Shown here: positions 17,282 through 49,112 of the stretch, in pieces
How the letters are laid out: each line of letters begins with the position of its first letter
Position numbering within the stretch: the stretch's first letter is position 1
Assembly (NCBI GenBank): GCA_008632985.1
Contig: QPGO01000148.1
Coordinates: forward strand, 62,001-126,000
DNA length: 64,000 nucleotides
Source: Psammoneis japonica
Taxonomy: Eukaryota
Direction: 5' to 3'
The notes under the pieces: generated by a model
The model's input: only the letters and a program-made list of their open reading frames with translations
Databases searched by the model: none
What the model was told of the DNA's origin: nothing
Position numbers and translations under genes: made by a program

Positions 17282-17413
17282 CAACAGTAGAACGCATTCT
17301 TTTAAATTCTGTACTAAGCGACGTCGATCTCTACTCTATTCTTCTCGCACAAAATTGCGCACGTGCGACACGACTTTATCAAATCATAATAGACAAGAGC
17401 GATGATTTTATCG

Positions 17414-19789: not shown

Positions 19790-20075
19790 AAGTCAGCACA
19801 GGTCAACAAAAGTCAACACATGAGCAAACATGAGTCGACAAAAGTAAACACAAGTCAACATGAGTCAACTTGAGTCAACAAAAGTCAATGAGTCAACAAC
19901 AAGCAAAGAAACATCTGTGGACAAACTGACAGTCTTGCATCTTGCTGGGCCTCCTGTGACAAATGTCGCAGATGCAGACAGATTTGCACGGGCGCCACGC
20001 ACACTCAACTTGGCACAGTCAACATGAGTCAACAAAAACCAATCCAAGTCAACATGAGTTAACATGCTTGAGTGA
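19790..20075. repeat. Clusters of ~10-bp AGTCAAC(AAA/ATG) repeats
   Basis: gtcaacaaaagtcaacacatgagcaaacatgagtcgacaaaagtaaacacaagtcaacatgagtcaac... at ~19800-19900, again at ~20017-20065. Confidence 0.75.
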
Positions 20076-22672: not shown

Positions 22673-22979
22673 TGTCACTCTGCAGAAGAGAAACAACAAA
22701 TCCAGATTGGTGCGGTGACCAAGGAACTCAGGGACATTCAGAAGATGTGGGAGGTTGCACGCCTGTTGAGATGAAGAGTCTCCAAGTGCTGGGTGTCTTG
22801 CAGGCTGTGTCACATCTGTTGCCCATCTTGGTTGCCATGACCATCATTGTTGGCCAAAAAGAGACCACAAATGACAGAGGATGCTGCAGCCAAATCAGGG
22901 TCTCTCATCAAGATGAGAGAGGGCAGGAGATGTCAGTGCAAAGCGCGCAGCAACACAAACACCAACAACACCCATGACC

Positions 22980-23390
22980 TCAAATGAACAATGTTTGCAG
23001 TTCAGTTGACAACATCTGCAATGTTTGTGACAAAATTGCACATTTTGGCAAGCAGCGAAGAACAGCGGCCCGGGGGTGCATTGTGACATGTGATGGCAAC
23101 AATCTGTGCAGTTGGCAAGAGTGGCATTCAAAGCTGGGGAGCACAGAGGCAATGGCAACAACACTGTTCATTTTTGAAGAATGGCACATGCAATCAGGGT
23201 GCATTGTGGCAACTGATGACCATGACATCCAAGCTGTTTTGCACTGCGACAAGCAGCCACAACAGCACCCACAACTTTCAAAATGGGCCTGGCTTCAAGG
23301 CCGCCCGCACAGAAAGGTCTTCAAACAAATGCCTTGCAAAGGCAAACTCAATTCAAAGCAACATCAGCATCCTGAATCTTTGCAATAAAT
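22980..23390 (+). pseudogene. Possible Mutator-type transposase fragment
   Basis: CNVC..NLCS..GSTEAMA..IF..GCIVATDD.DIQAVL..KGKL loosely resembles the CxxC...GSSxxME...IxxDxDS pattern of Mutator-like transposases; weak. Confidence 0.25.
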
Positions 23391-23853
23391 GAAGTGAACA
23401 CAGTGTCAGGTCAAGGTGTTGAATGACTCTCTTCCAGCCTCTCTCCAGAGGCTCTCTCCTTGTGGCAAAAACCAGCCAGTGTGTTGCTCTGCACGCCAGT
23501 CGGTCCTGACTCCGGCCGTTCTCTTTCTCCTTGCCTTGGATTGCATCCGAAAAATATGCGATGAATACAACGACTCTCTTTTGCCTCTCAATGTGTTGAA
23601 AAACGAGAAGGGAACGTTCCAGCGTTGGGCATGGCTTGCCTTTGGCAACCATTGTTGCCGACCACACGTACGCAATCGTCGTTCGCGTCTCATCGCGCGC
23701 TATCTTATCCCGCGGTTTTTTGCGTCGAAAACCCAAAACACGGATCAGCGCAATAAAACAAACAGCACAACACTCAATAACACAATAACACGCTACACGC
23801 TCACTCCAAAACACGAAACTGAACACAACGACAACCGAAGCAGAACACACAAT

Positions 23854-27197: not shown

Positions 27198-27589
27198 TTC
27201 GCCTTCTGTTGTTGTTGTTTGCGTGCTTCACTTGGAGGATCATTCATTGGTAAAGAGTTGGTAGTAGAAACGTTGTAACGTTGTGTCTACGGATTGCAGA
27301 ATGTATCGAGGAGTACTGTTAGCTGCAATGTGTTTTTGTGGAGTCTTGGGACTCGGGACTCTCAAGGGGAGGAGCGATGCAAGATGCATGACACACAAGA
27401 GTTCGGGTCGGCGACGAGAACGGGAGTTGCTGGCCAGCAGAGAGAATCACATGCGTGCCATTCTTCATGGTGTAGCTGCAGCAACTCCTCCGAAGCAAGG
27501 GACCACAAACGTTGGTTTCATCACTTTTCCTTTGTTCGACATGACAGCAAACCAGGTTTCTCATCAACCACGTAATTTTTACGTGCTGG

Positions 27590-30500
27590 AATGACGAATC
27601 ATCCTCACTCGATGTCAAAGCGGGGCGTGGGGGGAGTCGTTTTTTCCCCGATGATCCTGCCACAGTCTGAACTGCAACGATGATGCAGCGGGGAACCGCC
27701 ACGGGGGTGCCGTCTTTTTTCCAAGAAGCGCCCCGCTTGATCCAGTTCCATCTCGGCACGGGTGTCCACGCCACCTTGGCACCGAGTCAGTCGTGCTGCT
27801 TCTTTGGAAGCCGCCATTCCTCCTGAACCGCCTCAAATCACCACCAAATCATAATCACACCCATGATCCGCCGATGGTCCATCTGCCAGCATAGTCACCC
27901 CCTCTGATGACACATCCTTTGCATCGCACGGCGCCACAAATGACCGACACCAGTCAAGAGTTGCATCGTGTCCTCCGAGACAGCCCTCAATGTCAGCTTC
28001 ATCGGGCTCGGTTGTGGCAATCTTGCTGAACCAGACAAACGGACAGCTGGTGTGATCATGGGCACTCTGATCCATCAGTTTTTCGTGAAAAGCCCCATCT
28101 GCCAACCATGCTCAAAACGAGGCACGATCATTGCAGGTGTGCTGAACTGTGCTTTGATTTTTGTTGGAAAAAGAATCGCCAAGGAGCTGAGCACAAATGA
28201 ACACCTGCGGCAGAAACCGCCTGATGGCAGAGCAAAGAAATTGAACACAAGCTCAACTGGTTGTTTGATTCTGAAGCCTGTTTCACTTGTGTGCTTGCTG
28301 CAGGAGTTCCATCCCGCAACATGCAGGACCTCGGGCGATGCCATGGTGGTTGTTGCTCTTTGTGGTTCTTGCGGCCTGGAGTCTGGAGTCAGAGCAAATG
28401 TGAATGAAGAGCCAAAAGCTGACAAAAGAAGTGTGAGTTTGTCCATCTCTGTCATGGACAGAACACAAGTCAAAAATCATGCATGCAAAATTTCAAAAGT
28501 TGCTTTTAAATTTAACAGGGCTTGAATGCAATGAATGTCTTGTTGGAGGCAGTTTGGTTCCAAGTGCCAACGATGGCAATGACAAGAGGTGGCACGATGT
28601 CATCCCCCGCAAGCTGTGGTGCAATTGTGCAATGTGTGCCTCAACACACTCTTGAGATGGCTGATTGGATTTCAATGAAACCACAGCAAATGAAAGCCTG
28701 AGAATCTCTTGCAAAGAGCGAATGACAATTTGGAGGACGTTCCTGTTCCACACTGAAATGATGCTGAATGCTTGCAAACGTCCAATGCAGCAGCAGTGAG
28801 AGCCAGCCAGTGCACTTTTGAGTGCACTGCAATGCATTTGCTCCATCAGAGAAGGGCCAGCCTCTGCTTTCTTTGTTTGATTGCATGCTGAACGCCTGCA
28901 GACGTTGTGGACCAAGACGGTGTGCTTGACACCCCAAAGGGCAGGCTTTTTCGTGAAGGTTGTAAGGTGGTTCAGACCACTTGAGTTGCTCATTGAGCAC
29001 AGGTTTAACACTCCTGTGGGTCGCCGGCCCATTGTGTCGGCCATGTTCTCCACATCCCACACAGCGTTTGATGACCCATTTGTTTCGTTTGCAATTGTGG
29101 CCGTCTCGCTGAGTTGTGCTTTGTAACTCACACTCATTTTCAGATTTTGATTGCCATTTTAACAGATGACATGAATGGAGATGTCAAACAAGGGGAATCT
29201 GCACATTTGCAGTTGCATGTCTGCATTTGCTCTGGACATCTACGGTGATGTTTTATTGGCGTGCCTCTTACGGCGATTGGAGTCAGCTAAAGTTGATGCA
29301 AGAAGACATTGCATGGGATTGATGGCATTCCTCAAGCTCCTCCAAGGATTTGTCATTGCAGAAGTGCAGCAACCTGCAAGCTTCAGCAGCAGACGTTGCT
29401 CCTGAGCAACCAGCACGTCTCTTGCCCCTGGTGGTTGCTTCACTTGACTTGTTCCAAGGGAAACATCTGTCTCACAACACTCCTTGGCGGTTGCTCTTTT
29501 TGAAACTCAAGAGGTGTTCACAAATGCTGCGCAATCGCTTGGTTGCAATTTGCAGCATGTGACAAGTGGTTCTGCGTTGCGAGTGGTTGACCCGAGTGCG
29601 TTCTCCAAGGCATGACCATCACCACAAGCATTTTCACGGCCACCACCACCAACCCATCACTGCATGTGCCAATCAAGGATTTGAGCAACCAAGTTTCTGA
29701 AATTGCACATCCAATTTCAATGCCACAGCAAGAGAGGACACGGAGTGTGCCACATTCCTCGCACCTGTGCACGCAAATGCCGCCCAAATGCTGCATTGCA
29801 ACTTACATCCAACGGTGATTCTCACTTTTGTGGAGGTCTCAAGTTTGCTCCAAGACACAACAGAGAACCCCACTGTAACCCCACCTGCCGCACATGTCCC
29901 CTTCAAGCAGCGGGGAAACTGCGTTCCATGCCCATGACCACTTGTGTGCAATGAGCAACCAGATCCCCCAATGTCAAGAGCCGCGTTCGGCATTTTTATC
30001 AAGGCAAGACGGCGGCTGCAACTCCACTCACATTTGCCAAAAGGATGTTTTCTGCATCACAAAATCAACCCTGGGAAAGGCGTCTGCCGCCAGCCTTTTG
30101 CTGATTTTGAACCACAGTGGCACAAAAATGAGGACTGCTCCATGCAGGTCAGGTGAACACTCCATGCCAACAGTTGGTTTCATCAATGTAAGTTCCGCGT
30201 GCAAAGGATCATAAACAACCACCGCCTCTTGCCTGTTGCTCCTTGTCGATTAAAACATTTGTTGCATGCATCTGCCATGAGGACGAACCACGAAACAAGC
30301 ATTGCGCACTGAGATGCAACAACACCTCTCTGGCAATGGCATGGAATCACCCATGATTTGCAACATCAAGGTGCACAGAGAGACATTCAATCAACCTGGC
30401 AGCTGCCTTTCGGCTGTGTCCTGCTTGAGAAAGTGACCAGACACCCAAGACCAGGGAACCAGGGGCGACACTTTTGTTCCCTCAGATCCATGTCATGAGT

Positions 30501-31120
30501 GCAAAGCTCTTGTGCAGCGCAGCAGCTCAGGGGCCTCAGATGCACTGGCTGGGGGGAACAAGCCATTGTGAGATGTCTCCAGTGTGCAAGATGGCCGCCT
30601 GCTTTCTGGCTTTTGTTGGCCTCTCTTTGCTCAAGGCAACAAAGCAGGGGGGGCTGAAAGCAGAACTGAGAGATTGTCCAAGATCTCTGGCCCATCAGCT
30701 CAAAAGGCACCTCCAGCAGCAGTTGCAGTGCAGGCACACTGTGAAAGAGACCCGCTCCAAAGCAATGTTCTCCTCAGCCAAGTCTGGACAAGGGAATGCC
30801 TGTGAGCAAGTTTTTGGAATGTCCAATGGCTGGGCATGCATCTGTCCTTTTTGAAGCCCAGGGGATCATCGCAAAAAGCACTGGTGCTGATTGTTGTGTG
30901 CTGCTGTGCTGTGTGCTGCCTCTGCACGCCTTTGTGCACACACCCATTCCTGCATCGCACACAGGCCAACGAGAGGCCAGAGGCACGATGTTGATCCTCA
31001 TGCACCACATCTCTGTCAAAAGGGTGAACACGCCGCAGCACCGCGGTTTGGGACGATCGACAAGTGCGCGGTCGTCCGCCTGCTCTCTCTCAGTCCGCGC
31101 ATCGTCATCGCGTGTCCGCA
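27590..31120. other. TpA-depleted hypermutated block 3
   Basis: TA scarce from ~27.6 kb to 31120, then an abrupt return (catactgtagtctatac). Confidence 0.88.
27765..28450 (-). pseudogene. 5' fragment of a glutaredoxin-thioredoxin reductase (TGR/TrxR-like) gene
   Basis: Minus strand reads CPFVW..EGCLGGHDAT (Grx-like C-terminus), then HGCDYDLVVI*GGSGGMAASKEAAR/LGAKVA, matching the TrxR FAD motif YDYDLxVIGGGSGG..AxKEAA. GGA->TGA stop, frameshift, then truncation. Confidence 0.8.
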
Positions 31121-32900: not shown

Positions 32901-35525
32901 GCTCTGTTTGAAAGCCATGCATCGTCATCCTCACACATGTGGCGCAAGAAGCATCATCTACCGCGTACATCCACATTTCGCCCATCATTTTATCTTCTCG
33001 ACAATGTGCCGTTCGCCTTTTTCACCAGTTCTTGCACTCCTGACTTTAACATCGCTCCCGACAGCGCCTCCTGCTACTCAGAGCCCGACTGGACCACCCA
33101 CACCACAACCAGCTGGACCTCCAAATAAGTGTCGACCTCTAACTCCGATTCCAACGCTTCCGCCTGCATTGCCTCCGACAGTTCCTCCAACGTATCCATG
33201 TGTAGAGTCCACGATCCATCCATTTCTAGAGTCCAAGAATTGACGGGAGATGACTTTGACAGGTGCTATAACAAAAACGACAAGAGCGCTGAGTTTTCAG
33301 CTAGACTAGCTCTAGAGAGCCTCTTCAAGGATTCTCTGCATCTTATTCTACCATTCGTCTGTGACAGTGTACGCTACGGTACATGCGAATGCTTCACGCG
33401 CGTGGGCTACCACATTCAGTGGAGGTTGAACGAGACTCTAGAGAGCAGGGCTACAGTGCAAAGCTTTTGGAATGTGCGGAACACTTCCACCGACTCTTTG
33501 GCGTTCTTGGAGCCATCGGGAAGCGTGGCTTTGGTCTTTACTGCAGATTTGGCTTTGGTCTTTATTGCAGATGCAACGTTGAACACACGTCCAATGTGAC
33601 TGACGTCCCAGATGGCAGTTGATTTCCACTTTCCGCTCTTCAATCGCCCTGTTCCAAAAGTCGACACCTTGCAAAAGTCTTTCATTTCAGCATGCTCTGC
33701 AAACATTTTGCAACCATGACAAGCGCATTCTGGCCTCTTGCTCATCAAGAAGCTCACTTGCAGAATGGACTCTGTTGCCAACCAGCCTGTCCAGAGTCTC
33801 ACTGTGCCACACCCTCCAAGCAACTCTTGGCCTTGGATTGATGGTCCTGCGAACAATCATCTAAAGCCGCCATTTGATCTTGCACAAAATGAAGTGCAAA
33901 GATGCCCCATTTGCATGTGCTGTCTTCCGCTTTGACCAAAGCCTGCACAACATTGTTCTTTTTGCCAAGAACTTCAATGCAGTCCTGGGTTTGACATGGG
34001 CTGTGGTGCTCGAAGAAGAGAAACAGTGCTGGGAACAACAATGCCCTGGAAATTTCTCGGAAAAGCTTTGGTGTTGAAAAATCTGGCAAAGCTCATGGAG
34101 CTTCATTGCTGAGATGTCAATGTTGCCAGAACTCAGCTGCACCTTTCTGGGTCCAAGGATGGAATCATTGGCAACACGAATGGTGTCAACCTTTGTCTAA
34201 AAGACACATCAACTTTGTCACCTTTCTTTTCCTTCATGGTCATCATGGTTCTCTGGGAAGCAACAATGTGCATTTGCATGCGTCACGCTCCAATTCACTG
34301 GGGGCCAGGCTTGGAACATTTGAGGGTGTGGTGCACAGCCCAATGCGCTCCTGAAATCAATCATGCACCCTGCAGGCATTCAAGAACCGCAGCACCTGTG
34401 GCCAAGAAGTTGTTCAGACAAGGAATCAAGCAACAATGCATGAGGTTTTCACAAAAATCAATCAGGAAACAAAATGTCACCATGTCAGTCATGAGCTCTT
34501 CTTCATGCCATCCCTTTTTGGCTCAACTGAGCTTCCTTTCCAGCTGCCAAGAACATTTCATTCTTCAAGTCACTCCCTTGAGATCATGACTCTCATAAAA
34601 AAAAAAGTTCTGGAGATGGTCATGTGGTCACAGCATGTTTTGTTGAAACTCATTCCACCCTCACAAGGCGCATGTCTTGTTGTCACTGAAAAACTGATTT
34701 GACGCTCAAGAATCAGCTTTGGCACAGGTTTTCTCCCACAAAAGAAAACTGATGGAAGAGCACATTGTGAAAAGGCTGCAAATCTCTGGAGTTGAGCACA
34801 CCACCACCACCAAAACAACTTGCATGCCTTCACTTGCTGCGCTGATTCACAAGGCTCCCATGTTTCATGCCAATGATTCAGCACATGACAACCCGTTTCC
34901 CACATGGCAGCTGGATCACAGTTCCTTCTAGAGAGAAGATGCATCTAAATCAGAAAGCAATGATTCTTCAACCACCTTCAACAGCTGACTGATTGATGTG
35001 ACATTGCGGCACTGCACCGCTTTTTGCGGTTGTTGCAAGTGTGCCCTCCAGGACACGGCGCAATGTTGCACAGCTGCAATCAACTTCAAAGGCTTGCTTT
35101 CACAAGCTTCCCCCCAAGGACATGGCCATGCAGCCCATTCAAGCAAAGAGGCAAACAACTTTCTGAAGACACCATCATCCCACACGTCATTTGTGAGCAG
35201 CCTCAGACTCAGGTTTTGTTTGGACAGATTCAAAATGTCTTCAATGCTTGAGACAGAAGAAGAAGCAGCAGCAAGAAGAATGCTTGTGCTGCCAAAACAC
35301 AAAAGTTTTGTGGTGTGTGCACTCCAAAGCCTTTTCTTGTGATGGTCATGACTTTCTGCAACAATTTGCAAGCGGCCCCAGAGGGTTCTCACACAAAAGA
35401 ATCATGCAGTCGGTCAGCAGCATCAGAGAATGCAAAATGATTGTAAAGCTGCTCAGCACTTTGGCGGCATGCTCATCATGGCTCATGGCTGTGTTGTGTT
35501 GGCAATGGTTTTGTCTGGACCTCAA

Positions 35526-35617
35526 ACCTTGCAAAAGAAGCGTTGGACCTTGCAAAAGAAGCATTGGACCTCACGAAAGAAGTGTTGGACCTCGTGAAAA
35601 AAGTGTTGGACCTCATG
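35526..35617. repeat. 21-bp tandem repeat, ~4.4 copies
   Basis: accttgcaaaagaagcgttgg / accttgcaaaagaagcattgg / acctcacgaaagaagtgttgg / acctcgtgaaaaaagtgttgg / acctcatg. Confidence 0.85.
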
Positions 35618-35699
35618 GCTTGCTCGCATGCAGCCTGGAGCAGCACACCAGCAGACACCGCAGAACGAACACCATGACAAGCACCATTGGATGCAATGC

Positions 35700-38600
35700 A
35701 TCTCAGGATGACACAGCACTGGTCTCCACTGGCCCACTTTGAGGAGATGGTTCACAATGCACTGAATCATCAGTGGTTGAAAATGGACCAGTGGAGACCA
35801 CAAGCGCTGAGGAAAACACAATGTGTTGACACAGATGGCTTTGGATGCAATGGTGATGGCAAAGAGTGCTCAGGAGATGAAGATGGTGATGACTCTCATT
35901 CTAAGAAAAGATTTGAGACAACTGCTAACTTGACTGCAGAGGCACTCAGAAAAGCCAGAAAAACCAACGCTGTGTTGGCTGAAAAGAAAAAGAAGCAACA
36001 GATTCACGTCGTCCTCATTGCAGTGCACCTTGCACTCATGGCACCACTTGTCAGGAGCCCAGCGCACCTCAAGAGAACAACATTGTTGGTGGAGGAGACT
36101 GTGTCAATGACAATGAGCCTGTGCGTGACATGGATGCAACAGAGCCTCCTGCGCCTGAGGACAATGCCACCTCTGTCAAAAGAAATGATGACGTTGTTCA
36201 TGCCGAGATGAAACAAGCACCGCAACCAAGTCACCAAGCAAGGATGGGCCAAAACCCATCAGTGCGGTAGATGACAACACCAACCAAGACACAAACCAAG
36301 AAAGTTTGTCAAGAGAACAGCCAGAGAAAAAAATGTTCACAAAATGCTTTGCACGTGAGAAGTTTGGAAGCTTGTCAGCCCCAGTGCAGAAGGTTCAGGA
36401 GAAAAAGGCACGAGCTGCCCAAGAGAAAACCAAAGCTCTGCCATTGCACCTCCTGCACCTGTTGCTCTTGATTCCAGTGGGGCTTCTTTTTGTCCTGACA
36501 TGATTCAAGGAGAAAATGTGGCTGAAGCATCAGCATCTGTTGCCAGCTACAAGTCGGTGGTGCAAAAGGTCAAGGAAACAGGGGACAGCCACCTGGACAT
36601 GTTTTGGATCAACGCAAAGGAAAAAAAAGGGAGACATTCATGTGTCAGGCAGGGTTCAACTTCCCAGCAAGGACAACACCAAGCCAGCATCTGTCAGCTG
36701 CTGTGTGATTGTCAAGAACAATGTCAGGAATCTTTTTGCACTTCTGAAACAAAAAGATGACAGAGAACTCGAATCCATGATGGATGTCCATGCAGAACTC
36801 AAGTCAGTTTTTGAAACCATTGTGTGTTCCAAACTTTCAAGGCATCACATGGGCTGGCAAACTTGTCAAGCGCAAGTGTGCGTTTGAAGATCCAGCTGTT
36901 CTTGGTGAAGACTCTTCCCATTTTAAGGTGGTTTACAATGCCAAGCATCCTGTTCCATCACAAGAAGTGCACAGCAAGGGTGGAAAGCACTTTGACAGGA
37001 TTTTGGGTGCAGGTGCATCTGCTCTTGAGAACTTCATCATCAAGCAAAAGCGCGTGGGTCCCTGCTGAATTTGCACTTGCAATCCTCAACCCAATGGGTC
37101 TCTGATGAGTTGGTGCAAGCTTGAAATGCAGGTGGACAGTTCCAAGCATCTTTGCAGGCCTGATTTGGTCAAGAGAGTTGTCAATTCCAAGACGCAAAAG
37201 TTGGAAATTGCATCAGTCAGTGCCATTTGTCACAAGCAAGTTTCCCAGGAGATGGCTTTGGACAAATCAACGCATCACATGACGCAGCTCTCTCTCATTT
37301 GTCCTTCAGGTGGAGCTGTGGCAGTGGTGGTGGAATGCTGCAATGCCCCCGCGACATTGACTCTGAGGCTGCTGCTTCCATTCCTCAGTTGCAACGTGTG
37401 CCCAATGAGAGAGCCTTTCTCAGTGGACTCTTGGCGCAAATTGGAAACTGGGATCCTGACATCTCAGTTGGACACAATGCATGGGGATGCAACATGGAGA
37501 TTGTCTTGTCTTGTTGTGTTGAGTTAAAAGTCCCCACGTGGAGCAAGATTGGAAGACATTGCAGGATGCAGCTTCTGCATTGGCCATCATTTTCCAAGAC
37601 CAAGGATTGGTTCACAGCTCATGCGGTGGCAAGGCAACTGCTTTGTGACACCCATTGGAGCACTCAGGAATTGCTTTGTGAGACAACATGCTTGCTCACC
37701 AACCTGGCGGCTTTGCAACTCAAGATGGATCACCAGGAGATTTGAGCAGTTGACGTCCCACAGCAGTGTTCCTCGTCCAAACACATTTTCTGCCTTGCCA
37801 CTCCCACCTTGTTCAATGCCCAGCTGGTGCAACAGCTTTTCTTCAAGCAGCAGATTCTGCCTCTCACCAAACAGCTGACCAACATTGCTGGCAACTTGTG
37901 GTCACACACAATCAGAGGACGGCATGCGGAGCACAATGAGCATTTGTTGCCACATGAGTTTCATGGACTCAAGTTCATTGCTCCAGAAAAGAAGAAGAAA
38001 TTCAAGCAGGATGCAACGTTGAAGAAGGCCAAACGCAGCGGTGGTCTGGTGTTGGAACCGAAGAAGGAGCTTTGTAATTCATTTGTTCTCTTTTGTTGGA
38101 TTTGAGCAGCCTCCACCCCTCCATCATTCAGAAATGCAACTTGTGCTTCACCACCATGGATTGGTCCAAGCACACAAATGGCGATGGCTTGTTGTCACCT
38201 CCGGTTCCGGATGACAGCTTGGATCAAGGGGTTCTTCCTTGGGTTGCAACGACTCTTGTTGAGTGCCAACATTGTGTCAAGAATGTGCTCAAGCAAGAAG
38301 AAAATGCAGAGATGAAGCAAGAGGCAAGGCATTGTTGTTTTGAATGCAAGGCATTGTTGTTTTGAATGTTGCATGATTTGCCTGTCCTTTTGACAATCTC
38401 TTGTGATTGCATTTTCTGTTTCTGCAGCTGAACATCCATCAGCAAGCTCTCAAGTTGACTGCCAATTCCATGTGCAGATGCCTTGGCTTTTCTAATTCTC
38501 ACCTTCATGCTGAGCCAATTGCCGCACTGGTCACAGCCATGGGACGTGAAACGATTCAGCACACGGTGGATGTCGCACAAAACATGGTTGGTCTCAAGCT

Positions 38601-39900
38601 GATTTGCGGCAACACCGACAGCATTGTGATCAATGCTTGGATCATGGATGCCATTGGGCAAGGTCCACATGCTTGGAGAGAAGGTCAAGAGGGAGGCAAA
38701 CAAACTCTGTCCAAGCATTGAGTTGGAGATTGATGGCATGCTCCTTGAGAAGAAGCAGTGTGCAGCTGTTGCTGCAATGCAAAATCCCAAAGGAGAGCCT
38801 CAGCATGGCACAGAGAAGAAGGGACTTGATTTGGTGCAAAGGGACTGGTGCATTCAGTCAAAGGACATGGGGCCTTTTGCGTTGGATCAGATCCTCTCAG
38901 ACAAAGACAGCAAAGAAGTCGTAAAGAAAATTCATGTTCATCTTTTAGGTGCAGCTGCAAAAGTGAGGAATGGTGAGCCACCACCAAAAAGCACAAGATC
39001 ACCAAGGGACAGAGCAAGCATCCAAATGATTGACCCAACGTCACAAATCTCACCCTTGCGTCATTGTTGCCAAGGCAATGTCAAAGAACAACCAACCTGT
39101 CAATGCAGGAGACCACATTCCCTTTGTCATCATGGCTGCAAACAAAGATTCGTTGTCAGACCAGCCCACAACAAAGACCTTGGCTGCTGAACAAGCACGT
39201 CACCCTGAAGAAATCAAGCGCAGCAACAGGGCCCTTAAACCAGACTTTGAATGGCATGTTGCCCAGATTCTCCTTCCTGTCACTTGCCACTGTGAGCCTG
39301 TTGCCGGGACCTTGCAAAGCATTCTTGCAGAGAAACAAGGGTTGGACTCAACCAAATGTTCAAGTGTCATCCACTCTGGTGGAACCAAAGTGGATGACAA
39401 GGATCTTGTGGATTACACCCCAGTGTCCTGTCTGCCAGATGAGGAGCAATTCAAGAATGTTGAGAAGCTTTTGCTCACCTGCTTGGCTTGCAACGTGAAG
39501 AGCGAGTTTCCAGGAGTGTTTTTTGCCTCCAAAAGACGTTTTGGGATTGTGCTGTGTGAACCACAATTGTCCTCACCCTGAGTTTTGGGGTTGACCCAGT
39601 CATGCTGGTTGTTTCCATGTTGGTCCATTGTTGCATGAGACAGTGCTGCAAGGGGTCCTGCTGTCTTGTCACCTGCCAGCTCTCCGTTGTTGGTGCACAT
39701 TGCATGAGTCAAGGTTGCGCAGCCTCCATGTGCCCTGTGTGCAGCAGTGAGCGTGCAATGCACATCCAGCTCAAGCACCTTGATGCTCTGTTGATGTTGA
39801 TCATTTTTGTGACAAACTTGAGCAAAAGAAGTTGATCATTTTTGTGACAAACTTGAGCAAAAGAAGTCAGGCACAAAGAGTCCACCCTCCTGGTGATGTT
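35700..39900 (+). pseudogene. POLA1: DNA polymerase alpha catalytic subunit pseudogene, near full length, with intron
   Basis: Collinear motifs: VDTDGFGC.GDG; SCCVIVKN..RNLF; KRKCAFE; SWCKLE; DPDISVGHN; LPLTKQLTNIAGNLW; SGGLVLEPKK; SLHPSIIQKCNLCFTT; ALKLTANSMC.CLGF; ICGNTDS; KGLDLVQRDWC; GDHIPFVI; ARHPEE; C-terminal Cys clusters. Many frameshifts and stops. Intron 38324-38427. Confidence 0.95.
39796..39865. repeat. Perfect 35-bp tandem duplication
   Basis: gttgatcatttttgtgacaaacttgagcaaaagaa x2. Confidence 0.9.
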
Positions 39901-41389
39901 CCACAGTCCATTGCAACTTTCCCATGAAACGACGCTGCAGAGCATCAATTTCAATGCCTCCTGCAACTCAAAGCAAGCTCTTGAGACTCTGTCCTTGTTT
40001 GTTTTGCCTTTCTCAATCACAAGGCCAGAACAGGTCTCAGTGCTGGACAATCCCAGCAGAAAACAGTCGTTGTCAATTCATGCAAATGAGACAACATGCG
40101 CAAAGCCAGCTGGGGCCAGTGCAATTGCAGCTTGTTGCGTTCAGAGTGCTGGCACAATCTCTCTGCAACAATTGGTTTTAATCTTGAGCATGTTGTGACT
40201 GGCAGAATTTTCTTGGCGGGATGTGGAGAACAGGCAAACGGGGCTTGTCAAAACAAATCATCTAGAGCCGCTTCTGGCAAGTGCATTTCATTGCCAAAGA
40301 AAAGCTTGGGGCTCAAAAGAGAAACTTGACTCAAGGCCTCTTTCCTCCCTGGCTGCTCTTAGAGAGCAGTGGCAGCAGCAACAGTGTGACACGCCAAGCA
40401 GTGCCTTTGTTTGGTTTGGCAATGTGGAACTTCTTGGCAATGTCATGGTGCACATCCAACCATGGCCGTTGGATCATAAACCATTGACCAACAACATCCT
40501 GTTTGACTTTGCCACACTCAAGGATTTGATTTTGGAGATTCAAGCGTCAGCGGAATCCAACAAGAGCAACAACAATGTAGACAAAAGACCCGGTTTGCAC
40601 CGCGGACGAGCTGCGCAGCCTTGCGGTTAACTGGCTCATGCAACAATTGGAGGGTGTCCTGCAAAAGATTCTTTTGGAGTTTGTGTTTGCTCCAGAAAGT
40701 GGAGCTGAGAGTGCCAGGTGACAAGTGCTAAAGGAGCATCAACAACAGCTTGCAAAGAATCTTGTTCCATGCTGAAGGAGCACACCACAAGTGCCAGAAA
40801 CAAGACATTGCAAGACCAAGAAGGCTCCTTCTCAAGATTTGAAAGATCTTGTGCCAAAAGAACATTTAGACCAACTGGAACACGTGTCAAAGAAACAGCT
40901 GGATTGAGTGGCAGACATTGATGCTGCACAGCCTGGGCACCTCCCATCAGCAGTGCTTTGGCAGGCGCCCACCGCCAAATTGTTGGGGTCACTCAGACAG
41001 ACTGGTTGTCTTTCCTCCCACGGCAGCCTTGTCCTTTGACTGTTGTTTGCTTTCAAAAGGAACACTGTCACCTTTTAATGTGCTCCTTTGAGAGCTTGGG
41101 AGCAGGACACCCAAACATTCTCCTTGACTTTCAAAGCATCATGCTGTGCTGGGAAGGTGGCTCAGATCATCATCAGGCAGTTGCTCACCTCCTGAGACAT
41201 TTTGCCTTTTCCCCATGGTGTCTGGAGCACTCTAGAAAGTTGTTCTTTGGAGATGTGGTCTGCCACTTGCACATGTGTTGGTGGAGTGATTGTCACCCAC
41301 CAAGCATGCAAACTGTGATGGAGACAGACATGTTTGATTTTTGTTTGAGTGGGACACCCGTTGCATCTGACAACCAACGACTTGGAACT

Positions 41390-43090
41390 TCACACACACT
41401 GCATCTGACAACTGACCCAATTCACCGTGTGATTTGGATCAGGACACAAGGAACATCCTGGACTCTTGACATCTTGCTCACCCACACTCACACCCAGGTT
41501 AAAAGCTCCTCCACAAGTTTTGAGCTCTCTTCCACCAATGTTCTGGATGAAGAACAATTTTGGCATCTGAAACAGCATTGTCTTGTGTTTTTCATGTGGA
41601 GCACAAGCCTGATTTTGAACAAATGTGACAAAGCCATTTGCTGATTCTTGAATTGCCATCATCGTGCATTCCTTCCAAATGCAAGCCTGAATTCATGCTT
41701 TTGTGACAAAGGTCTTCAAGGAGTCATGGATGATTTGGTTCAAGCTCAAAGTGGTTTCATGAACAGCCTTGGTCTTCAAAGAGAACTCATGGAACTTGCA
41801 AGTGTCAGAAAATGTCTGGATGGCAATCATTGCAGCAGGTGCGTGCTCTTGAAGCATTTCTTGGAAACAGCCAGACAAATCAATTTTGTGCTCAATGGAC
41901 AAGTCAAAGGAGGACTGGTGGCAGACAGAGCTCAAGGCTTTCAGAGCCTCAACTGGCATGTTGTCCGCAGGCATGCAGCTTCAAATGACATTGTGAAGAA
42001 GGGTGGAGCTGCAGCCCTTGTGTTCAACAGACACACAATGAATGCTTGACCTGATTTGAGCTTCAATGGGCATGCTCATGGGTGTGGTGTTGCAGAGGAT
42101 GTTTTGGAGGTGGACAAAGGAGTCGACATGGCTTTCAATTGTCACTGAAATTGTGGTCGTAGCCAAAGCACTGCAAAGCATGTCATGACTTGCTTTCACA
42201 GCAATTGACACACCTTGCGCCATCACGTCAAAGACAGCCAAAAGCGGGCTGGCAAAGTGACCAGCGCTCATGGCACCGGCAGCAATGCCAAGAAGGGAGA
42301 TGACAGCAAGATTCTTCATGAAGGCAATCATGGTGATGACTTTGCCATGCCACTTTCCTGTTCAAAGAAAAGATTGTGAGAGAATTGAAAGCAGAAATTG
42401 AGGTGTCCAGCCATCGGGAGGAAGCATCAATGTCAAGTGCCAGACATGCAGAATTCCATGTGAAACGCTCCAAAAACAAGAATTGCCTGCATCGATTGTG
42501 TCGCCAGAGAGAGGGGAAGATGTTGTTGTCACCATTTGCAATGTTCAATGTTGGGCTGGACATGAGGTGTGATTCTCCTGAAAAGAACAGGGCTGCAGAG
42601 CAACGGCAGGTTTTGGTGTTTGTGGCCAAAGCGCTGCAAAGCATGTCATGACTTGCTTTCACAGCAATTGACACACCTTGTGCCATCACGTCAAAGACAG
42701 CCAAAAGCGGGCTGGCAAAGTGACCAGCACTCATGGCACCGGCAGCAATGCCAAGGGAGATGGCAGCAAGATTCTTCATGAAGGCAATCATGGTGATGAC
42801 TTTGCCATGCCACTTTCCTGTTCAAAGAAAAGATTGTGAGAGAATTGAAAGCAGAAATTGAGGCGTCCAGCCATTGGGAGGAAGCATCAATGTCAAGTGC
42901 CAGACATGCAGAATTCCATGTGAAACGCTCCAAAAACAAGAATTGCCTGCATCGATTGTGTCGCCAGAGAGAGGGGAAGATGTTGTTGTCACCATTTACA
43001 ATGTTCAATGTTGGGCTGGACATGAGGTGTGATTCTCCTAAAAAGAACAGGGACTGCAGAGCAACGGCGGGTTTTTGTGTTTGTTTTCAG
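41390..43090 (-). pseudogene. Degenerate membrane-protein gene relic
   Basis: Protein-like minus-strand pieces (AFMKNLAVISLLGIAAGAMSAG..., EALKALSSVC...) broken by frameshifts; no Tyr. Confidence 0.3.
42162..43085. repeat. Near-identical tandem duplication, ~460 bp x2
   Basis: Units start gccaaagc at 42162 and 42625; about 10 substitutions and 2 small indels by eye. Confidence 0.95.
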
Positions 43091-44724
43091 CCAATGTTGT
43101 GATGAGATTGGTGGGAGATTTGGAAGTGACAGTGATTTGGCCAGTGCTTTCTTTAGCCATGCAACACAATGAGAGATCACATTCCACGTGTTTGTTTGCT
43201 CAAACCAATTGACACTTCTCTGTGTTGCCCATTGCAGCCACAGCGCTTCTTTTGTTTCTGGCCCATTCTGAATTCATGCAGTGCACTGCAGTCAACAAAA
43301 TGACCGGCATTTCATGGCAGGTTCCCTGCATCACACTTCTGCAAAACTGCACGGGAATGGACTCTAAAACTTTGGGCTGGAGATGATGTCAAAGCAAAAC
43401 CAAGTTTAAAAATCATTGTCAACCACTGCATCACATGTGGCATCATCATGCAGAAATCATGGAATGATGAGTCAACCAACAAATGACACAGCTGCTTGCT
43501 CTAGATCATGTGTCAAACAAGCCACTGCCTTTTGTTTTGTCCTTCATGAGGGACCCTCATGTCCCTCTTGATGCAGTGCCATGACATTGTGGTTTTGTGC
43601 AGCAATGGTGCTGTCTTGGTCCTTCAACAATGGTTGGCTTCTTTTGCGCCAGTCATGGGGACATGGCTTGCTTTGGCAATGGAGCTTGGCAAGAACTTTG
43701 CAAATCTTTAACATTGGAAAAGCATGTTTCATGCAACCAAGGTTCTTCTCAATGTCACGTGTGCAGTGCACTTGCACTTGCATCAAGTTGTGGAGCTGTG
43801 CTTTTTTGCGCACTTTCTGAACACCAGCCTTGTGCAACTTGTTCTTGTTGTTGGATGCGCATGGCAAAAGAGCATGTTTCTCAAGCCCCAAGTCAGTCTG
43901 GCAGTCTCTTCCTGTCCCACCCAAGCTGAATGAGTTTTGCTGGCAGTGGTGATGCCATCATTGTGTTTCATCATTGGTGTTTCCTGCTGATGCAAGTGGA
44001 GACAAACCAAGTTTGTTTCCTCATTTTTGCCTGGTGCAAATGGCAAAGTCAAACAGTCATCTGTTTGGAGATGCCTCATGTGGTTTGTCACCATTGGTTG
44101 TTGCAGCCACACTGACCCAACAGACATGATGAACTTGGCTGTTCCATGCAAATGCATGACTCTCGCCCCTCTTTCCCACAAGAGAGACAAGCTGTTGTGG
44201 CGTCCCAATTCACCATGGCTTGTGGGCAAGGAATCAGATGTGTTGGAGTCACAGGATGAGCTGTGTTTTCTGAATCTGTTGATGCCCCTTTTTGCAGCAA
44301 GAGATCTTTGTGCATGCAAACAGCTGCAGCACAATCTCATTTGTTTGAATCAACAATTTCCTCAAAAATTCTTCATTTCATTGAATTGTCAATCTTGTGT
44401 GGAAAGAGCAATCAAGGTTTTGCCAACAAGTTGCATTGAAAGTGAACATTGCAAAATGACTCTTGCTTGTTGGTTTCACAGGAAGGCGGTGGCACAACAG
44501 TTTCCATTCCCTCCACACAACATGTTGAATTTCCAGACATGGGATCACACAGAGCGCCTTCGCAGGCCCACCAATCAGGTGCACCATCCACACCGCACTT
44601 GCTTTGGATTCATGGCTTCTGCATGGCATGGACCTTTTCATGCAGACAAAGCAACTGATTCATTCAACAGAGGTGCAGCTGTCAGAGTTAAAGTTGTGGG
44701 CAATGCGGTCACTGGTGAAATGAC

Positions 44725-45700
44725 AGGAGGCAATGTCAGGATGGCAGGAAATGATGTTGGGACCAGAGTCGGCAAGTCTGAGACCCCCAATCAACAGATG
44801 ACAGTTGCAGGTCTTGGACCACCCTTGCTCCCAAGGTCCTGGCAGAGGTGTGGCAAAAGCATTCACAGTGGGCACTGACTGTGCCATTTCTTGTAAATGC
44901 AAATGGAGAGCCTCTTCATCCTCTTGGCTGTTTCCTCACACTTGGCAGGCAATGTCAGGATGGCAGGAGCTGGTGTTGGGACCAGAGTTGGTGAGCGAGT
45001 CTAGTGTCAACAGCCAATGCTGGATCACCACCACTGCCATGAGACCCCCGATCAACAAATGACAATTTTGGGTCTTGGGCATGCCCAAGAAGGTCCTGGG
45101 GGAGTTGCGACAAAAGCAGCCATGGTGGGTGCCACTGGCCCTGCTTCTTGCAAACAAAAATGGAATCTCTTCATTCTCTCAGCTGTTTCCTCCCACTTTT
45201 GAATTTGGAAAACAGGAGGCAATGTCAGGACGGTGGGAGCTGGTGTTGGAACCGGAGTCAGTGAGTGAGTCTGGTGTGTCAACAGTCAATGCCAGATCAC
45301 CACCACTGCCATGAGACCCCCCATTGACAAACAATGATTTTGGGCCTTAGACCACCCTTGTTTCCTGAGGTCCTGGAGGAGGTGGGGCAAAAGCAGCCAT
45401 GGTGGGTGCTGCCAGTGCAGCTTCTTTGTTGTGAATGAAAATGGAATCTCTTCATCCTCTTGGTTGTTTCCTCCCACTTTCGAACTTGGCAGGAGGCAAC
45501 ATCAGGAGGGTGGGAGCTGGTGCCGGCATGCCACAAGTTCCCCAATCAACAGATGACAGTTGCAGGTCCTGGGCCACCCTTGTGATTCCCAAGTCCTGGT
45601 GATGCACAGCAAAAGCAGCTGTGGTGAGTGCGCCGGTGCCACTTGTTGCAAACGAAGACAGAGCCTCTTCATCCTCTTGGCTGTTTTTCCCCAATTGATG
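44725..45700. repeat. Diverged tandem repeat, ~220-275 bp x4 (coding relic)
   Basis: aggcaatgtcagga...gagaccccc..tcaaca.atgaca...tctcttcatcctcttgg recurs at ~44727, 44945, 45215 and 45490. Minus strand reads LLIGGLMAVVVI plus TPVPTPAPT units. Confidence 0.85.
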
Positions 45701-46897
45701 AGCTCCAGGATGTGGGCTTGCATTGTCCTGGCTGTCAGAATTGTGCTGCTGGTTTGCAGCTCCAGGAGATGTCATCTCTTCAACCCTTGCATTGGAAGCA
45801 TTGCTTGGAGCCATCTCAACTCACGACGTGTTCCAGCCCCAGGTGACACACAAAACGACACAACCCATTTTGAACACACATGTCTCTTGTGTGTGAAGCA
45901 TTTGAATGTAAAACACTCAGGCAGATGGGCTTTTGCAGGTGTCTAGAGCATGAAGATCTAAGTGGTTCTTTTGTTGGCATTCAATTCCTCGTGGGACATG
46001 CACTGTGAACTCCCTCTGCAGACTCAATGCTGATTGTGCGACAGCACATTGGATGCATGTTTTTGGCAGCAGGTGGAACATGACCCACCAGAGGCTCCTG
46101 AGGAAAAGTCATTTAATTTGACATTCAAGTGATGGCAACACTTTTGTTGAAAATCATCCACTGTGTTGTGGCTCATTTGTCGCAATGAAAAACACAGATG
46201 ACACAAAAACAATGACATTGCAACACTGACGCAAGTCTTTTTGGTGTTGCAAAACATTCAATTTTGGACAAGTCTACACTTTTGGTCGTGAAAGTTTGTT
46301 TGCAAGTGAGAGACCACACAAAACTTGTGCAAATGTTGTTTTTGTGCACGATTTGGGTCACGTGCAGCTGGAACACGTCTCCCTCTTTGTCAAAGAACAC
46401 CAAGGCTTCTTTTCGTTCTCAATGACGTCGATGAGAAGCATGCAGGGGTCATTCAAAACACAAAGCAATCCACATCTTGAGAACTTGCTGAGCGTTGGCA
46501 CCGATGTCATTCTTGTCTGGCAAATGCAACCATGACTCGCGCTTTTCCATTGGAGATTCGCGGTGAATTCTTCTTGGGCGATCTTTTCCATGAGTGCAAC
46601 AACCCAATCTGCAAGATTTCTGCTGTCTCACACAGTCCATCTGTAAGAACACACAAGAGCTCTGGAAGGCACTGTTGGCCATGTAAAGGCGATGCATCAC
46701 CCATGGTGCAGAGAAGTGTCACCGGTCACCTGCACCATCACAGAAGCAATCTACTGTCAATGAGCCATGTGCACTGGTGCAAAAATCACGTAGAATTTTT
46801 ACATAGAAAACATCATAAAAATCAGGGTTTGGGCCGATTTTTTTCTCGTGCTTCTGCGTGCCGTGCTTCTCGGCTCCTCCGACGCCTCAAGGAATCG

Positions 46898-49112
46898 CAC
46901 CCCTGTGGCAGGGGAGAATGTGGTGATGTCATGGTTGCGTGGCAGTTTGCATCTTGTTCATTGTATTTTCACATAAATGTCCTCACATTTATTTGTGCAT
47001 TTGTGCACAAATGCTGACAGCAGCAGGAAAAATCCTGAACCACATTCTCCCCTAAAACTCTAGCCACCAAAAACCGAGGGGTCGGAAGCGCACTTTTGGG
47101 AGCTCTTTTTCTCCGCACAAAAAACACGCGTTTCGTCAACTCGACCATGACGACCTCCCATCTTCATCCCCCACACCACCTGACGTGTCCCCGCCTGCCA
47201 TGTCTGATGCGGCAGTCCCTCCTGTGTTGGCCGGCACCGTTGCACCCGCTGTCGTTGCCCAAACACAGCCGATTTGCCATCCGGAGGATTTGGGCTTCTG
47301 TTCGCCGGATCCTGTGCCTGAAACACAAACACAGCGCCGTGATTGGTCTGCTCCTGTCATTGTGTCCCCGGAGAAACTGGATTCTCGTTCACATCGCCGT
47401 GTCATGGAAGGCACTGATGAGCCTTCTCTCAAACGGTCTGGGGTGCAGCTCCGAAACCAGGTCAAAAAACAAAAGCAACAAACCGACGTCAAGGTTCAGT
47501 GGGCATGGCAGAGGAGCATCTATGACAGGAGGCATGGTGACAACCTTTCTCAGGATGATTGTTCCCAAGCAGAACCTTGTCTATCTGGAGGTGATTGAGA
47601 CTCACCCAGAGCCCAGCGGAACCAATCGGAGCCAACAACAAGTGTCAAGATGAACCGCAGCAACATGTGAAGGAGGACGCAGCTGATGGAGTGCAGGCAG
47701 AGAAGGTGCCGGCATGCAAAGTGGCAGCATGGCTGTCGACAAGGCACCAGTTTTGAAGGTCTAACAGTGACAAACACAGTGAGTGTTTGCCAAAAGCATG
47801 TTGCTGCCTGCCTCCATTTTAGCAACATGCAAAAACAGCATGTTGTGCGTCACATGTAGAATTCAAACGGCGAGAGTGGCCTCTTATGGAATTGTACACA
47901 ATGACCTAGTCCTGGAAAACAGAGCAGTGTCCAAGTCACATGCACCATTTGAAACCTTGCCAAGTCGCCTGCAAACAAATGCCAATTCGCTGACCTCTCC
48001 AACTTGAAACTAAAAAACTGTGAAAGCATGCCTGCCATCTGATTGTTGTCAGGTTTCTAATTTACAGAGAGCTGCACAATGTGTCTGCATGTTCTAAAGA
48101 TTAGACTGCACTCGAGAGCTAACCAAGAGGCACCATTCATGTCCATTGATGTGTTGTCCATCAGCAGGTCGTGGTTGCGTGGGTTTCCTGGTCCGCCGTC
48201 ATCCGTCATCCATTGTGTTCCTTCCAAAGCAAAAACAACAACAGCATCAACAGCAACTGTGGCAGCAAGGGCAGGATTGACAGTGTCGGGCATGCTGGGG
48301 GGCCGAAACGCAGGTGCGGCGTTGGAATTCGTGACAGCATCTGTGGGAGGCAGTGGGGCGAGAATGAAAGAAGTGTGAGTTACAAGCATTTCGTTGTGGA
48401 CGTCATTGGCAAAAGACAACAACAGCATCAACAGCACCTGCGGCAGCAAGGGCAGGAGTGACAGTGTCGGGCATGCTGGGGGGCCGAAACGCAGGCACGG
48501 CGTTGGAATTCGTGATGGCATCTGTGGGAGGCGGTGGGGCGAGAATGAAAGAAGTGTGAGTTGTTGGCATTTCATTGTGGACGTCATTGGCAAAATGCAA
48601 TGACAGCATCAACAGTGCCTGCGGCAGCAAGGGCAGGAGCAACAGTGTCGGGCATGCCAGGGGCCCGAAACGCAGGCACGGCGTTGGAATTCGTGACAGC
48701 ATCTGTGGGAGGCGGTGGAGCGTGCAAACAACAGTGTGAGTTTGCAGCATCTTATTTTGTACGCATCACACCCACGAGAACCGGAACAATGACATTGCCT
48801 GTTGCATCAGTGTCATTGGCAACGGTGTCAGTGGGATCGGCGTCCTGGGAAGGCGATGGGGAAGAACCACGAGGCATCATCATGGTCGAGTCGACGAAAC
48901 GCGTGTTTTTTGTGCGGAGAAAAAGAGCTCCCGAAAGTGCGCTTCCGACCCCTCGGTTTTTGGTGGTTAGAGTTTTAGGGGAGCTGTGGAATAGGAATTT
49001 TTACTTAAGGAATATACACATTCGTGTGGATATTAACATTAAAACTCAACGCACGGCGAAGCCGTGCGCGCACAACCACGCACACACACACAGCTCCCCT
49101 ACCACAGGGGTG
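46898..49112. mobile_element. Non-autonomous MULE-like DNA transposon, 2215 bp, composite TIRs, 9-bp TSD
   Basis: TSD aaggaatcg at 46889-46897 and 49113-49121. Termini cacccctgtgg...ccacaggggtg. A ~105-bp inner inverted repeat at 47047-47150 and ~48880-48983 has 3 mismatches by eye. Confidence 0.92.
48233..48742. repeat. Tandem repeat, ~182 bp x~2.8, inside the MULE-like element
   Basis: acagcatcaacag...ggcagcaagggcagga...ccgaaacgcagg...gcgttggaattcgtga..gcatctgtgggaggc occurs three times. Confidence 0.9.

Follow-up and report, generated by a model that had tools for sequence, protein, structure and literature searches.

The stretch of DNA analyzed here (hereafter the window) comprises 64,000 nucleotides (nt) of Psammoneis japonica contig QPGO01000148.1, at positions 62,001 to 126,000, and carries a decayed copy of the gene for the catalytic subunit of DNA polymerase alpha (POLA1-type; family B; Pol1). 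Sequence comparisons confirm this copy as an unprocessed duplicate of the host gene, made at the DNA level and since decayed. It lies in one of four blocks of the window from which TA dinucleotides have nearly vanished. All positions given below are those of the window, and the features are collected in Table 1.

The POLA1-type pseudogene and its second copy

Pfam matches, colinear tblastn alignments, and the presence of stops and frame changes all agree with the initial annotation in identifying a Pol alpha pseudogene. The exonuclease and polymerase domains of family B follow each other in canonical order, with PF03104 matched at 4.4e-06 and PF00136 matched on five frame fragments (best 4.7e-17), four of which exceed the 23-bit cutoff (62.4, 39.5, 37.6, and 25.6 bits). 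The C-terminal Pol-alpha zinc finger, PF08996, scores 25.0 bits in the decayed copy against a cutoff of 25.7. Alignments by tblastn of 15 full-length orthologues are colinear from residue ~56 to residue ~1538, the C-terminal reach being residue 1538 of 1586 in orthologue P0068, and at the N-terminal end residues 56-110 of orthologue P0035 match the pseudogene at an E value of 2.5e-4. The pseudogene map holds 966 codons with ten frame changes and four in-frame stops, all of which are TGA (37066, 37743, 39031, and 39592). Two residues are exchanged in polymerase motif C (Table 1), Tyr for Cys (TAY>TGC) and Asp for Asn (C|GAC>C|AAC). The copy cannot be active because this Asp, a catalytic residue, has been lost, and with both its reading frame and motif C disrupted it is not a working member of the POLA1 family.

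A protein search with fragments of the pseudogene returned 106 proteins at E ≤ 1e-5, in which the named proteins at 49-58% identity are all from diatoms or the bolidophyte Triparma and frog proteins come next at 37-39%. A quick maximum-likelihood tree of 18 rows was built from the window copy, the 15 orthologues, and two frogs, leaving out the 89 other proteins of the search, which are mostly partial and include two further frog proteins. The window copy nests within diatoms, together with Seminavis and three other sequences (Shimodaira-Hasegawa-like approximate likelihood-ratio test 95), on a very long branch (1.61) that makes its exact position unsure. The parent protein was not found in the protein collection by two fragment searches (top identities 58% and 51%), and the parent DNA was absent among 80 metagenomic POLA1 loci, in which the top match is 76% over 139 nt. 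Relatives of the RabGAP open reading frame (ORF), a genuine gene of the window, were found at 36-40% identity only, a sign that the collection contains little from this organism.

The protein alignment continues unbroken across an interruption of 101 nt, with residue 1040 of P0068 on either side, and five genomic metagenome loci of relatives (L015, L016, L040, L052, and L053) are interrupted at that residue too, by 65-107 nt. Since an ancestral intron has been kept at an orthologous site that is conserved in diatom POLA1 genes, the copy is an unprocessed duplicate and not a retrocopy. Its donor, GCAAGG, would correspond to GTAAGG after a TA>CA change.

Contigs of one public sample (X1) tile positions 30001-45851 with 0-5 differences per piece (pieces of 1-4.6 kb), and the window sequence appears from this agreement to be real. 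Fixed single-base differences between the window and the contigs of this run occur at 34597-35091 and 30518-32020 (for example, 34721 G>A, 34722 G>A, and 34724 A>G) and are either assembly errors or strain differences. No RNA run is listed as containing the stretch. A second copy in the same sample matches the window at about 86-87% over 35.9-40.9 kb (58 differences in 446 nt; 144 in 1068 nt), and transitions make up 368 of 448 (82%) of the differences between the two. The duplication may have taken in a neighboring gene or untranslated region at 39878-40916, a segment for which no Pfam match was found. Contigs from X2 reach portions of the gene blocks and leave the TA-poor DNA uncovered; no inference is drawn from this, as missing cover is no evidence of silence.

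Direction and context of change

Conserved columns were defined as those in which at least 13 of the 15 diatom-type orthologues agree and at least eight tblastn maps agree on the codon, a definition that yields 514 columns. Because its ancestral residues are known, the pseudogene reveals the direction of change. The initial annotation had named eight Tyr codons as altered through TA, and all eight read as claimed (36877 TGT, 38034 CGC, 38073 TGT, 38114 CAC, 38135 TGC, 38473 TGC, 38605 TGC, and 38759 TGT); each is a column with Tyr in at least 13 of 15 full-length diatom-type POLA1 proteins, and the functional orthologues do not share the Cys, His, or Arg residues of the window copy. Across all 21 conserved Tyr columns, the pseudogene has Cys in ten, His in six, Arg in one (CGC, both bases changed), a stop in one (39031 TGA, beside a frame change and of unsure placement), and Phe in one (39123 TTT), with Tyr kept in two (36934 TAC and 39414 TAC). 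The statement that none had become Phe, Ser, Asp, Asn, or stop thus stands for the eight sites and fails among the 21 columns. Nor do the missing Asn, Asp, and Ser outcomes speak against random decay, as had been argued, since transition bias alone explains them. His and Cys are reached by the only non-synonymous transitions of a Tyr codon, so that any transition-biased decay favors them; the products are therefore uninformative under such a bias, and the evidence lies in the excess of rate rather than in product identity.

This excess is large. When the comparison is confined to residues with invariant first and second codon bases, ancestral TA at these two positions is changed in 19 of 21 columns (17 of these 19 via TA>TG, TA>CA, or both), compared with 66 of 365 for eleven other dinucleotides (Fisher p = 8.4e-12), which means that TA sites changed about five times more often (90% versus 18%). 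TA is also more mutated than other A/T sites, as AA, AT, and TT pooled are changed in 20 of 100 cases (p = 1.4e-9; AA 9/54, AT 8/31, TT 3/15); TG is changed in 1/28 and GC in 0/23. Non-TA sites were changed in 77 of 730 cases. The same contexts recur across codon boundaries, where first-position A>G is preceded by T in 8 of 10 cases (Met/Ile>Val, Thr>Ala) and first-position G>A by C in 11 of 18 (Asp>Asn, Glu>Lys). Arg is kept in 13 of 36 conserved columns, and 21 of the 23 changes are to Gln, Cys, His, or Trp; these changes and the Asp>Asn exchange in GDTDS, which reads GGC|AAC, bear out the CpG decay proposed in the initial annotation. The substitutions in the pseudogene are indeed dominated by TA>TG/CA and CG>TG/CA.

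The nucleotide alignment to another copy that had been called for was possible in part, with the 86-87% alike copy in place of a functional gene. The context of change was taken from 16 listed differences at 35920-36394 (from 40 listed of 825 rows). Among these 16, four have TA in the second copy and TG in the window and none has TA in the window, so that TA to TG runs one way. Four others have CG in the second copy and CA or TG in the window, three have CG in the window and TG or CA in the second copy, and five are other changes.

TA-poor and TA-normal blocks

Although first attributed to the pseudogene, the signal belongs to the 15.5-kb TA-poor block around it and to three further blocks. 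Window-wide, the observed/expected ratio (o/e) of TA is 0.33, with a bimodal distribution in a 500-nt profile, and the four sharply bounded TA-poor blocks occupy ~53% of the window. TA-poor blocks have overall o/e values of 0.05-0.18 for TA, 0.23-0.76 for CG (0.23-0.48 in most of them), and 1.5-1.9 for TG/CA, as compared with 0.56-0.76, 0.86-1.07, and about 1.1-1.3, respectively, in TA-normal blocks, while GC content is equal in both (0.47-0.51). Per kb, TA-poor DNA has lost 36.9 TA and 30.0 CG (66.9 together) versus a gain of 68.4 TG+CA. The switch between the two states takes place within about 100-200 nt, and in block 4, where CG o/e is 0.23-0.33 over 33481-46000 and 0.65 over 46001-49000 and TG and CA stand at 1.5-1.84, each edge is less than ~100 nt wide (TA positions 33452/33539 and 48968). 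Loss of TA runs ahead of loss of CG, with TA 0.11 and CG 0.76 over 1-5500 and TA 0.05-0.06 and CG 0.23-0.26 in the deepest blocks.

All six ORFs with above-cutoff Pfam matches sit in TA-normal blocks. TA-normal DNA outside ORFs of at least 100 amino acids (4934 nt) has a TA o/e of 0.76, and because the non-ORF DNA of gene blocks keeps this value, the loss of TA is not the neutral state of the genome. These data bear directly on the view that the pseudogene underwent ordinary neutral decay, with transition bias and CpG methylation and no TA-specific process. Such decay would be in keeping with His and Cys as the only non-synonymous transition products of Tyr codons and with the predominance of transitions among the differences to the second copy, but it is contradicted by the rate excess at TA, both against AA, AT, and TT and against all other dinucleotides, and is already refuted by a TA o/e of 0.05 over 12 kb compared with 0.76 in the non-coding DNA of gene blocks. 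We see virtually no chance that it is correct.

As a control, 1501 1-kb windows around the 80 metagenomic POLA1 loci (810 kb) were profiled. None has a TA o/e below 0.1, as opposed to 48 of 127 in the present window, and the 13 control windows at 0.1-0.2 are all GC-rich (0.56-0.74), 12 of them with CG excess (o/e 1.3-1.9). The control shows that the TA-erased state is not general, and it says only that, as repeats are under-sampled in metagenome contigs.

The few TAs that survive in TA-poor blocks are unevenly distributed among contexts. RTAY is left six times in TA-poor and 387 times in normal blocks, YTAR 80 versus 194 times (p = 2e-27), and mixed contexts are intermediate (86 versus 676). 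With both strands pooled, survival is 0.05 for TAT, 0.07 for TAC, 0.15 for TAG, and 0.26 for TAA. This pattern corresponds to a one-strand motif of TAY if A is attacked, or of RTA if T is attacked. Tyr codons following a pyrimidine gave three Cys and two His, and those following a purine seven Cys and four His.

Table 1. Features of the window, with positions, strand, and supporting observations.
Feature	Position	Strand	Observations
POLA1-type pseudogene, unprocessed, full-length	35810..39861	+	Pfam matches on frame fragments; colinear tblastn; stops and frame changes
Retained intron, 101 nt	38324..38424	+	5' end GCAAGG, 3' end TTTCTGCAG; contains a 22-nt tandem duplication
Polymerase motif C	38602..38622	+	I-C-G-N-T-D-S; orthologues I-Y-G-D-T-D-S
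TA-poor block 1, open at window start	1..10190		TA o/e 0.11 over 1-5500 (CG 0.76), 0.06 over 5501-10050 (CG 0.42); edge near 10194
TA-poor block 2	18490..23550		TA o/e 0.06, CG 0.26, TG/CA 1.83; edges 18484/18667 and 23386/23555
TA-poor block 3	27585..31120		TA o/e 0.10, CG 0.48; no TA 30251-31123, dense afterwards
TA-poor block 4, contains pseudogene	33455..48985		TA o/e 0.05-0.06 (33481-46000), 0.18 (46001-49000)
Mutator-like (ZSWIM/MULE-type) transposase relic, TA-poor block 1	8261..9379	+	421 homologues at E ≤ 1e-3
Tandem repeats of ~270 nt, copies differing CA versus TG at one dinucleotide	44700..45710		Families D11-D17
High-copy element, 107-nt inverted terminal arms	47047..48983		Arms 47047-47153 and 48877-48983, 96% complementary
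Segment 3' of pseudogene, second copy ~87% alike in same sample	39878..40916		X2 contigs 13 and 14, X1 record 7: 56 differences/460 nt, 70/531 nt
TA-normal gene block: nitroreductase, PI3/PI4-kinase, others	10194..18484		TA o/e 0.56-0.76, CG 0.86-1.07
Further TA-normal blocks	23555-27580, 31123-33452, 48968-64000		Dinucleotide profile

The pattern seen in the pseudogene is repeated in a Mutator-like transposase relic of block 1. Its top homologue (1.1e-71, 40% identity; P0123) matches PF21056, the RNaseH-like domain of ZSWIM/Mutator-type transposases, at 28.1 bits versus a cutoff of 27.2. The relic ORF contains no Tyr in 372 amino acids (median 3.4% in 22 homologues), whereas Cys reaches 7.3% (homologue median 2.5) and His 4.0% (median 2.5), and at nine columns with Tyr in at least 40% of the homologues it has Cys in four, His in three, Arg in one, and Phe in one. 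The relic is an independent replicate of the Tyr-to-Cys/His pattern in a sequence unrelated to POLA1. Tyr is below 1% in 4 of 150 transposase homologues from other organisms, which are not clearly rich in Cys or His, and no conclusion is drawn from them.

In the TA-poor blocks as a whole, outside the pseudogene, none of the 135 ORFs of at least 90 amino acids reached a curated Pfam cutoff and seven had sub-threshold matches; 13 ORFs rescanned against Pfam at E ≤ 10 yielded nothing usable, and Rfam matches in the window number zero. These 135 ORFs fall in about 30 kb of TA-poor DNA, with spurious long frames in all six frames. Because only TGA stops survive, the Tyr-free, Cys/His-rich ORFs and the long stop-poor frames are artifacts of the process.

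Repeats within the blocks show that the change took place in place. Among two-base differences between repeat copies, CA<->TG accounts for 43 of 123 in TA-poor blocks versus 3 of 52 in genic repeats (p = 2.4e-5), although some pairs use one common reference copy, so that the counts are not fully independent. A difference of CA versus TG between copies, as in the ~270-nt tandem repeats of block 4, means that an ancestral palindromic step decayed independently after local duplication. Two further repeats may be mentioned separately. About five tandem units of ~21 nt at 35525-35615, the copies of which differ as CG/CA/TG at one dinucleotide, offer a small-scale picture of decay, and a tandem repeat of ~188 nt (three copies, 22130-22680) has, in each copy, 11-15 consecutive G ahead of an A-rich stretch.

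Independent decay of repeat copies also argues against a sequencing or assembly artifact, in which a modified base at TpA would have been systematically miscalled in TA-poor blocks, since a miscall would not give TG in one copy and CA in another at a palindromic site. It is true that the sole run containing the stretch may be the source data and that its library type is not on record, but the block is also found, with the few differences given above, in contigs that a different pipeline assembled independently, and the copy also contains frame changes, TGA stops, and changes at non-TA sites. We consider an artifact very improbable.

The high-copy element at the end of block 4 bears on how the blocks are delimited. 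Its right end is the end of the block, with dense TA directly beyond the right arm, and this coincidence of a block edge with an inverted-repeat terminus favors sequence-defined units over spreading chromatin. The inverted arms are CG-rich, and their few TAs are CTAA and CTAG, the best-surviving contexts. Summed contig depth over the repeat at 46000-49340 is 4000-8400 versus ~60 for single-copy DNA, or roughly 100 copies. No target-site duplication was recognized at the element by eye. A nested insertion is suggested by several contigs that skip ~2.2-2.5 kb of the sequence from roughly 46.8 to 49.1 kb.

These targets raise the possibility of a burst akin to the repeat-induced point mutation (RIP) of fungi, in which duplicated DNA would be recognized and then mutated at TA and CG in a single episode or a small number of them, instead of by chronic decay. 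A sexual phase could be the occasion and the RID-related DNMT4 of diatoms the agent. A gene duplicate with a second copy, a transposase relic, and an element of roughly 100 copies would be apt substrates, the block edges match element ends in sharpness, with one of them at an inverted-repeat terminus, and TA loss precedes CG loss. We nevertheless regard such a burst as unlikely. At 85% likeness or above, some stretches of the TA-poor blocks occur in a single copy (for example, 33.3-35.3 and 43.3-45.3 kb; depth ~61-83), the other POLA1 copy keeps TA where the window copy has lost it, the changes at non-TA sites fit age better than a single burst, and fungal RIP makes TpA rather than destroying it. 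In favor of a burst, DNMT4 is described in the part of PMC9998398 considered here as related to fungal RID and widespread in diatoms, with no known function. The sections of the Bigelowiella natans study discussed below describe a single-copy target, a further point against a burst.

Two observations concern the edges and contents of the TA-normal gene block. An open frame of 571 amino acids on the minus strand (17414-19129) crosses the edge at ~18.5 kb from TA-normal into TA-poor DNA and is either a real gene at the block edge or an extension through lack of stops. Four consecutive long ORFs on the plus strand (14577-17281), 14-50 nt apart and one of them with a PI3/PI4-kinase domain (3.3e-29), look like one large kinase gene with very short introns. 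A comparison of the kinase ORF with the ESM Atlas returned its family and nothing informative on lineage.

Relation to known systems and proposed process

The closest known system is that of the chlorarachniophyte B. natans. In the sections of the preprint by Mettrop et al. (bioRxiv 10.64898/2026.01.13.699255) considered here, two silent integrated viral regions mutate ~1000-fold above the rest of the genome, nearly all changes in mutation-accumulation lines are TpA>TpG/CpA, an adenine deaminase resembling ADAT2 is put forward as a candidate, and clusters of TpA-poor, CpA+TpG-rich windows are reported elsewhere in the genome (10.64898/2026.01.13.699255). The present data resemble this system, so far as those sections describe it, in the A:T>G:C change at TpA giving TpG/CpA (deduced here from conserved ancestral residues), in the discrete regions with TpA loss matched by CpA+TpG gain, and in the company of transposons, transposon-type domains being enriched among TpA-poor coding sequences in B. 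natans and a transposase relic being present here. The two cases also differ, by the same sections, in several respects. The B. natans targets are integrated DNA of nucleocytoplasmic large DNA viruses (NCLDV) and virophages in which mutations were observed directly, whereas here the evidence is historical, the lineage is that of diatoms, and the targets are a host-type POLA1 duplicate, a Mutator-like relic, and a high-copy element. Depletion in B. natans is modest (Rho_TpA 0.45 in the NCLDV region; cluster cut-off 0.43), as compared with an o/e of 0.05 and about half of the window affected here, and neither CpG loss nor the TAY preference is reported in those sections.

Fungal RIP shares with the present case dinucleotide-specific transitions confined to repeated or duplicated DNA, destruction of genes, sharp edges, and a skewed dinucleotide profile. 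It differs in its chemistry, which according to the part of PMC2621366 considered is C>T at CpA, creating TpA and lowering GC, whereas here TpA is depleted (o/e 0.05-0.1), CpA is enriched, GC is unchanged, and any dependence on duplication is putative. CpG decay of methylated transposons and pseudogenes, as in vertebrates and diatom transposable elements, likewise yields CG>TG/CA, an excess of TG/CA in silent DNA rich in repeats, and Arg>Cys/His/Gln/Trp, but lost CG accounts for 30.0 of 66.9 per kb, not even half of the TG/CA gain, and CpG decay leaves TA untouched. The clusters of deaminase-type, context-dependent transitions are similar to those left by APOBEC and ADAR hypermutation in unwanted nucleic acid of viruses and retroelements. 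APOBEC, however, produces C>T changes, and the substrate of ADAR is double-stranded RNA, with a preferred 3' G, unlike the present pattern, in which TAG survives better than TAY. The retained intron and the uniformly affected non-coding flanks argue against an RNA intermediate.

The pseudogene itself, the direction and context of the changes, their restriction to domains, the change in place, and its repeat in an independent gene directly support our main reading, namely that a domain-wide, near-saturating TpA>TpG/CpA process, together with CpG decay, has operated in the TA-poor blocks and acted on the POLA1 duplicate. We put the probability of this reading at about 0.8. The setting is a diatom-lineage genome with several non-genic domains that carry transposons and have sharp bounds. 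In these domains, a TpA-specific A:T>G:C process preferring 5'-TAY-3' (5'-RTA-3' on the other strand) would turn TA into TG/CA and a second process, CpG decay, would turn CG into TG/CA, with both near saturation. In the pseudogene, Tyr codons (TAY) became Cys or His, and Arg codons (CGN) became Cys, His, Gln, or Trp, while steps across codons gave Met/Ile>Val at T|A and Asp/Glu>Asn/Lys at C|G. The TA process is probably the same kind of targeted hypermutation as in B. natans, most likely through enzymatic deamination of adenine, which would yield inosine, a base read as G, and would act where DNA carries a mark of silent, repeated, or foreign/duplicated status. Ordinary deamination of 5-methylcytosine in the same silenced domains would explain the slower, separate loss of CpG.

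A decidedly unlikely alternative, in our estimation, locates the attack on thymine. A dioxygenase of the TET/JBP type would convert the T of TpA, by oxidation at its methyl group, first to 5-hydroxymethyluracil and later to 5-formyluracil, the mispairing of which with G would lead to T>C, and the same class of enzyme acting on 5-methylcytosine could add to the loss of CpG. TpA and TpC are the preferred sites of hydroxymethyluracil in dinoflagellates, base J is located at TpA within telomere repeats, and 5-formyluracil is known to pair wrongly with G. A dinoflagellate genome containing hydroxymethyluracil was itself considered as the source of the pattern and set aside, since the polymerase groups with diatoms. 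TA>CA and TA>TG are not separable by strand, and both targets are 5-methylpyrimidine-purine steps that are lost together in most blocks. Positions 1-5500, however, have lost TA without much loss of CG, the literature in the parts considered is without such bases in diatoms (the matches listed for hydroxymethyluracil concern dinoflagellates or other topics), and the sole direct study of TpA hypermutation, in the sections considered here, favors a deaminase, without proof.

Several points weigh against the TpA process proposed here or restrict its details. The TA and CG processes are separable, leaving a single cause unsupported, since 1-5500 combines low TA with nearly normal CG. A>G and T>C are indistinguishable because TA is its own complement, and the TAY preference rests on the surviving TAs, the Tyr codons being too few to confirm it. 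The second POLA1 copy may itself be disrupted, and X1 is possibly the source of the window's own assembly, in which case the agreement between them is not independent. The evidence is historical, and any enzyme or base modification behind the changes is hypothetical. In the sections of the B. natans study considered, the targets are viral and no CpG effect is described, whereas here CpG and TA are lost together, and no viral protein was found in the window by Pfam scans of the TA-poor ORFs.

With these points in mind, we would like to propose, tentatively and at slightly less than even odds, that a diatom-lineage alga runs a RIP-like defense by TpA DNA editing, likely by adenine deamination at TAY, which would erase essentially every TA from silent, repeated, or duplicated domains, duplicates of essential genes included, and do so faster than CpG decay. 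To our knowledge, targeted mutagenesis of nuclear DNA as a genome defense is almost unknown outside fungi (RIP) and animal deaminases. For diatoms, literature searches on TpA hypermutation, on RIP/DNMT4, and on hydroxymethyluracil brought up no account of such a process, and the sole report of TpA-specific hypermutation found was the 2026 preprint on a chlorarachniophyte. The sequence evidence presented here suggests that the process is at work in another algal lineage, one that is ecologically dominant, where it is saturated over roughly half of 64 kb and has struck transposons and duplicated host genes, either in addition to viruses or in their place. The flanking-base preference (TAY/RTA), the order of rates relative to CpG decay, and the edges at element ends go beyond the sections of the preprint considered here.

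There are also consequences for annotation. Gene finders would over-call in TA-poor blocks, and the annotation of transposons and pseudogenes fails in them, as no ORF outside the pseudogene reaches the Pfam cutoff though one has 421 homologues. If the proposal is true, then together with the Bigelowiella case it would mean that TpA editing is widespread in the SAR (Stramenopiles, Alveolata, and Rhizaria) supergroup, where it would influence the composition of genomes and leave transposons and pseudogenes unrecognized in their annotation.

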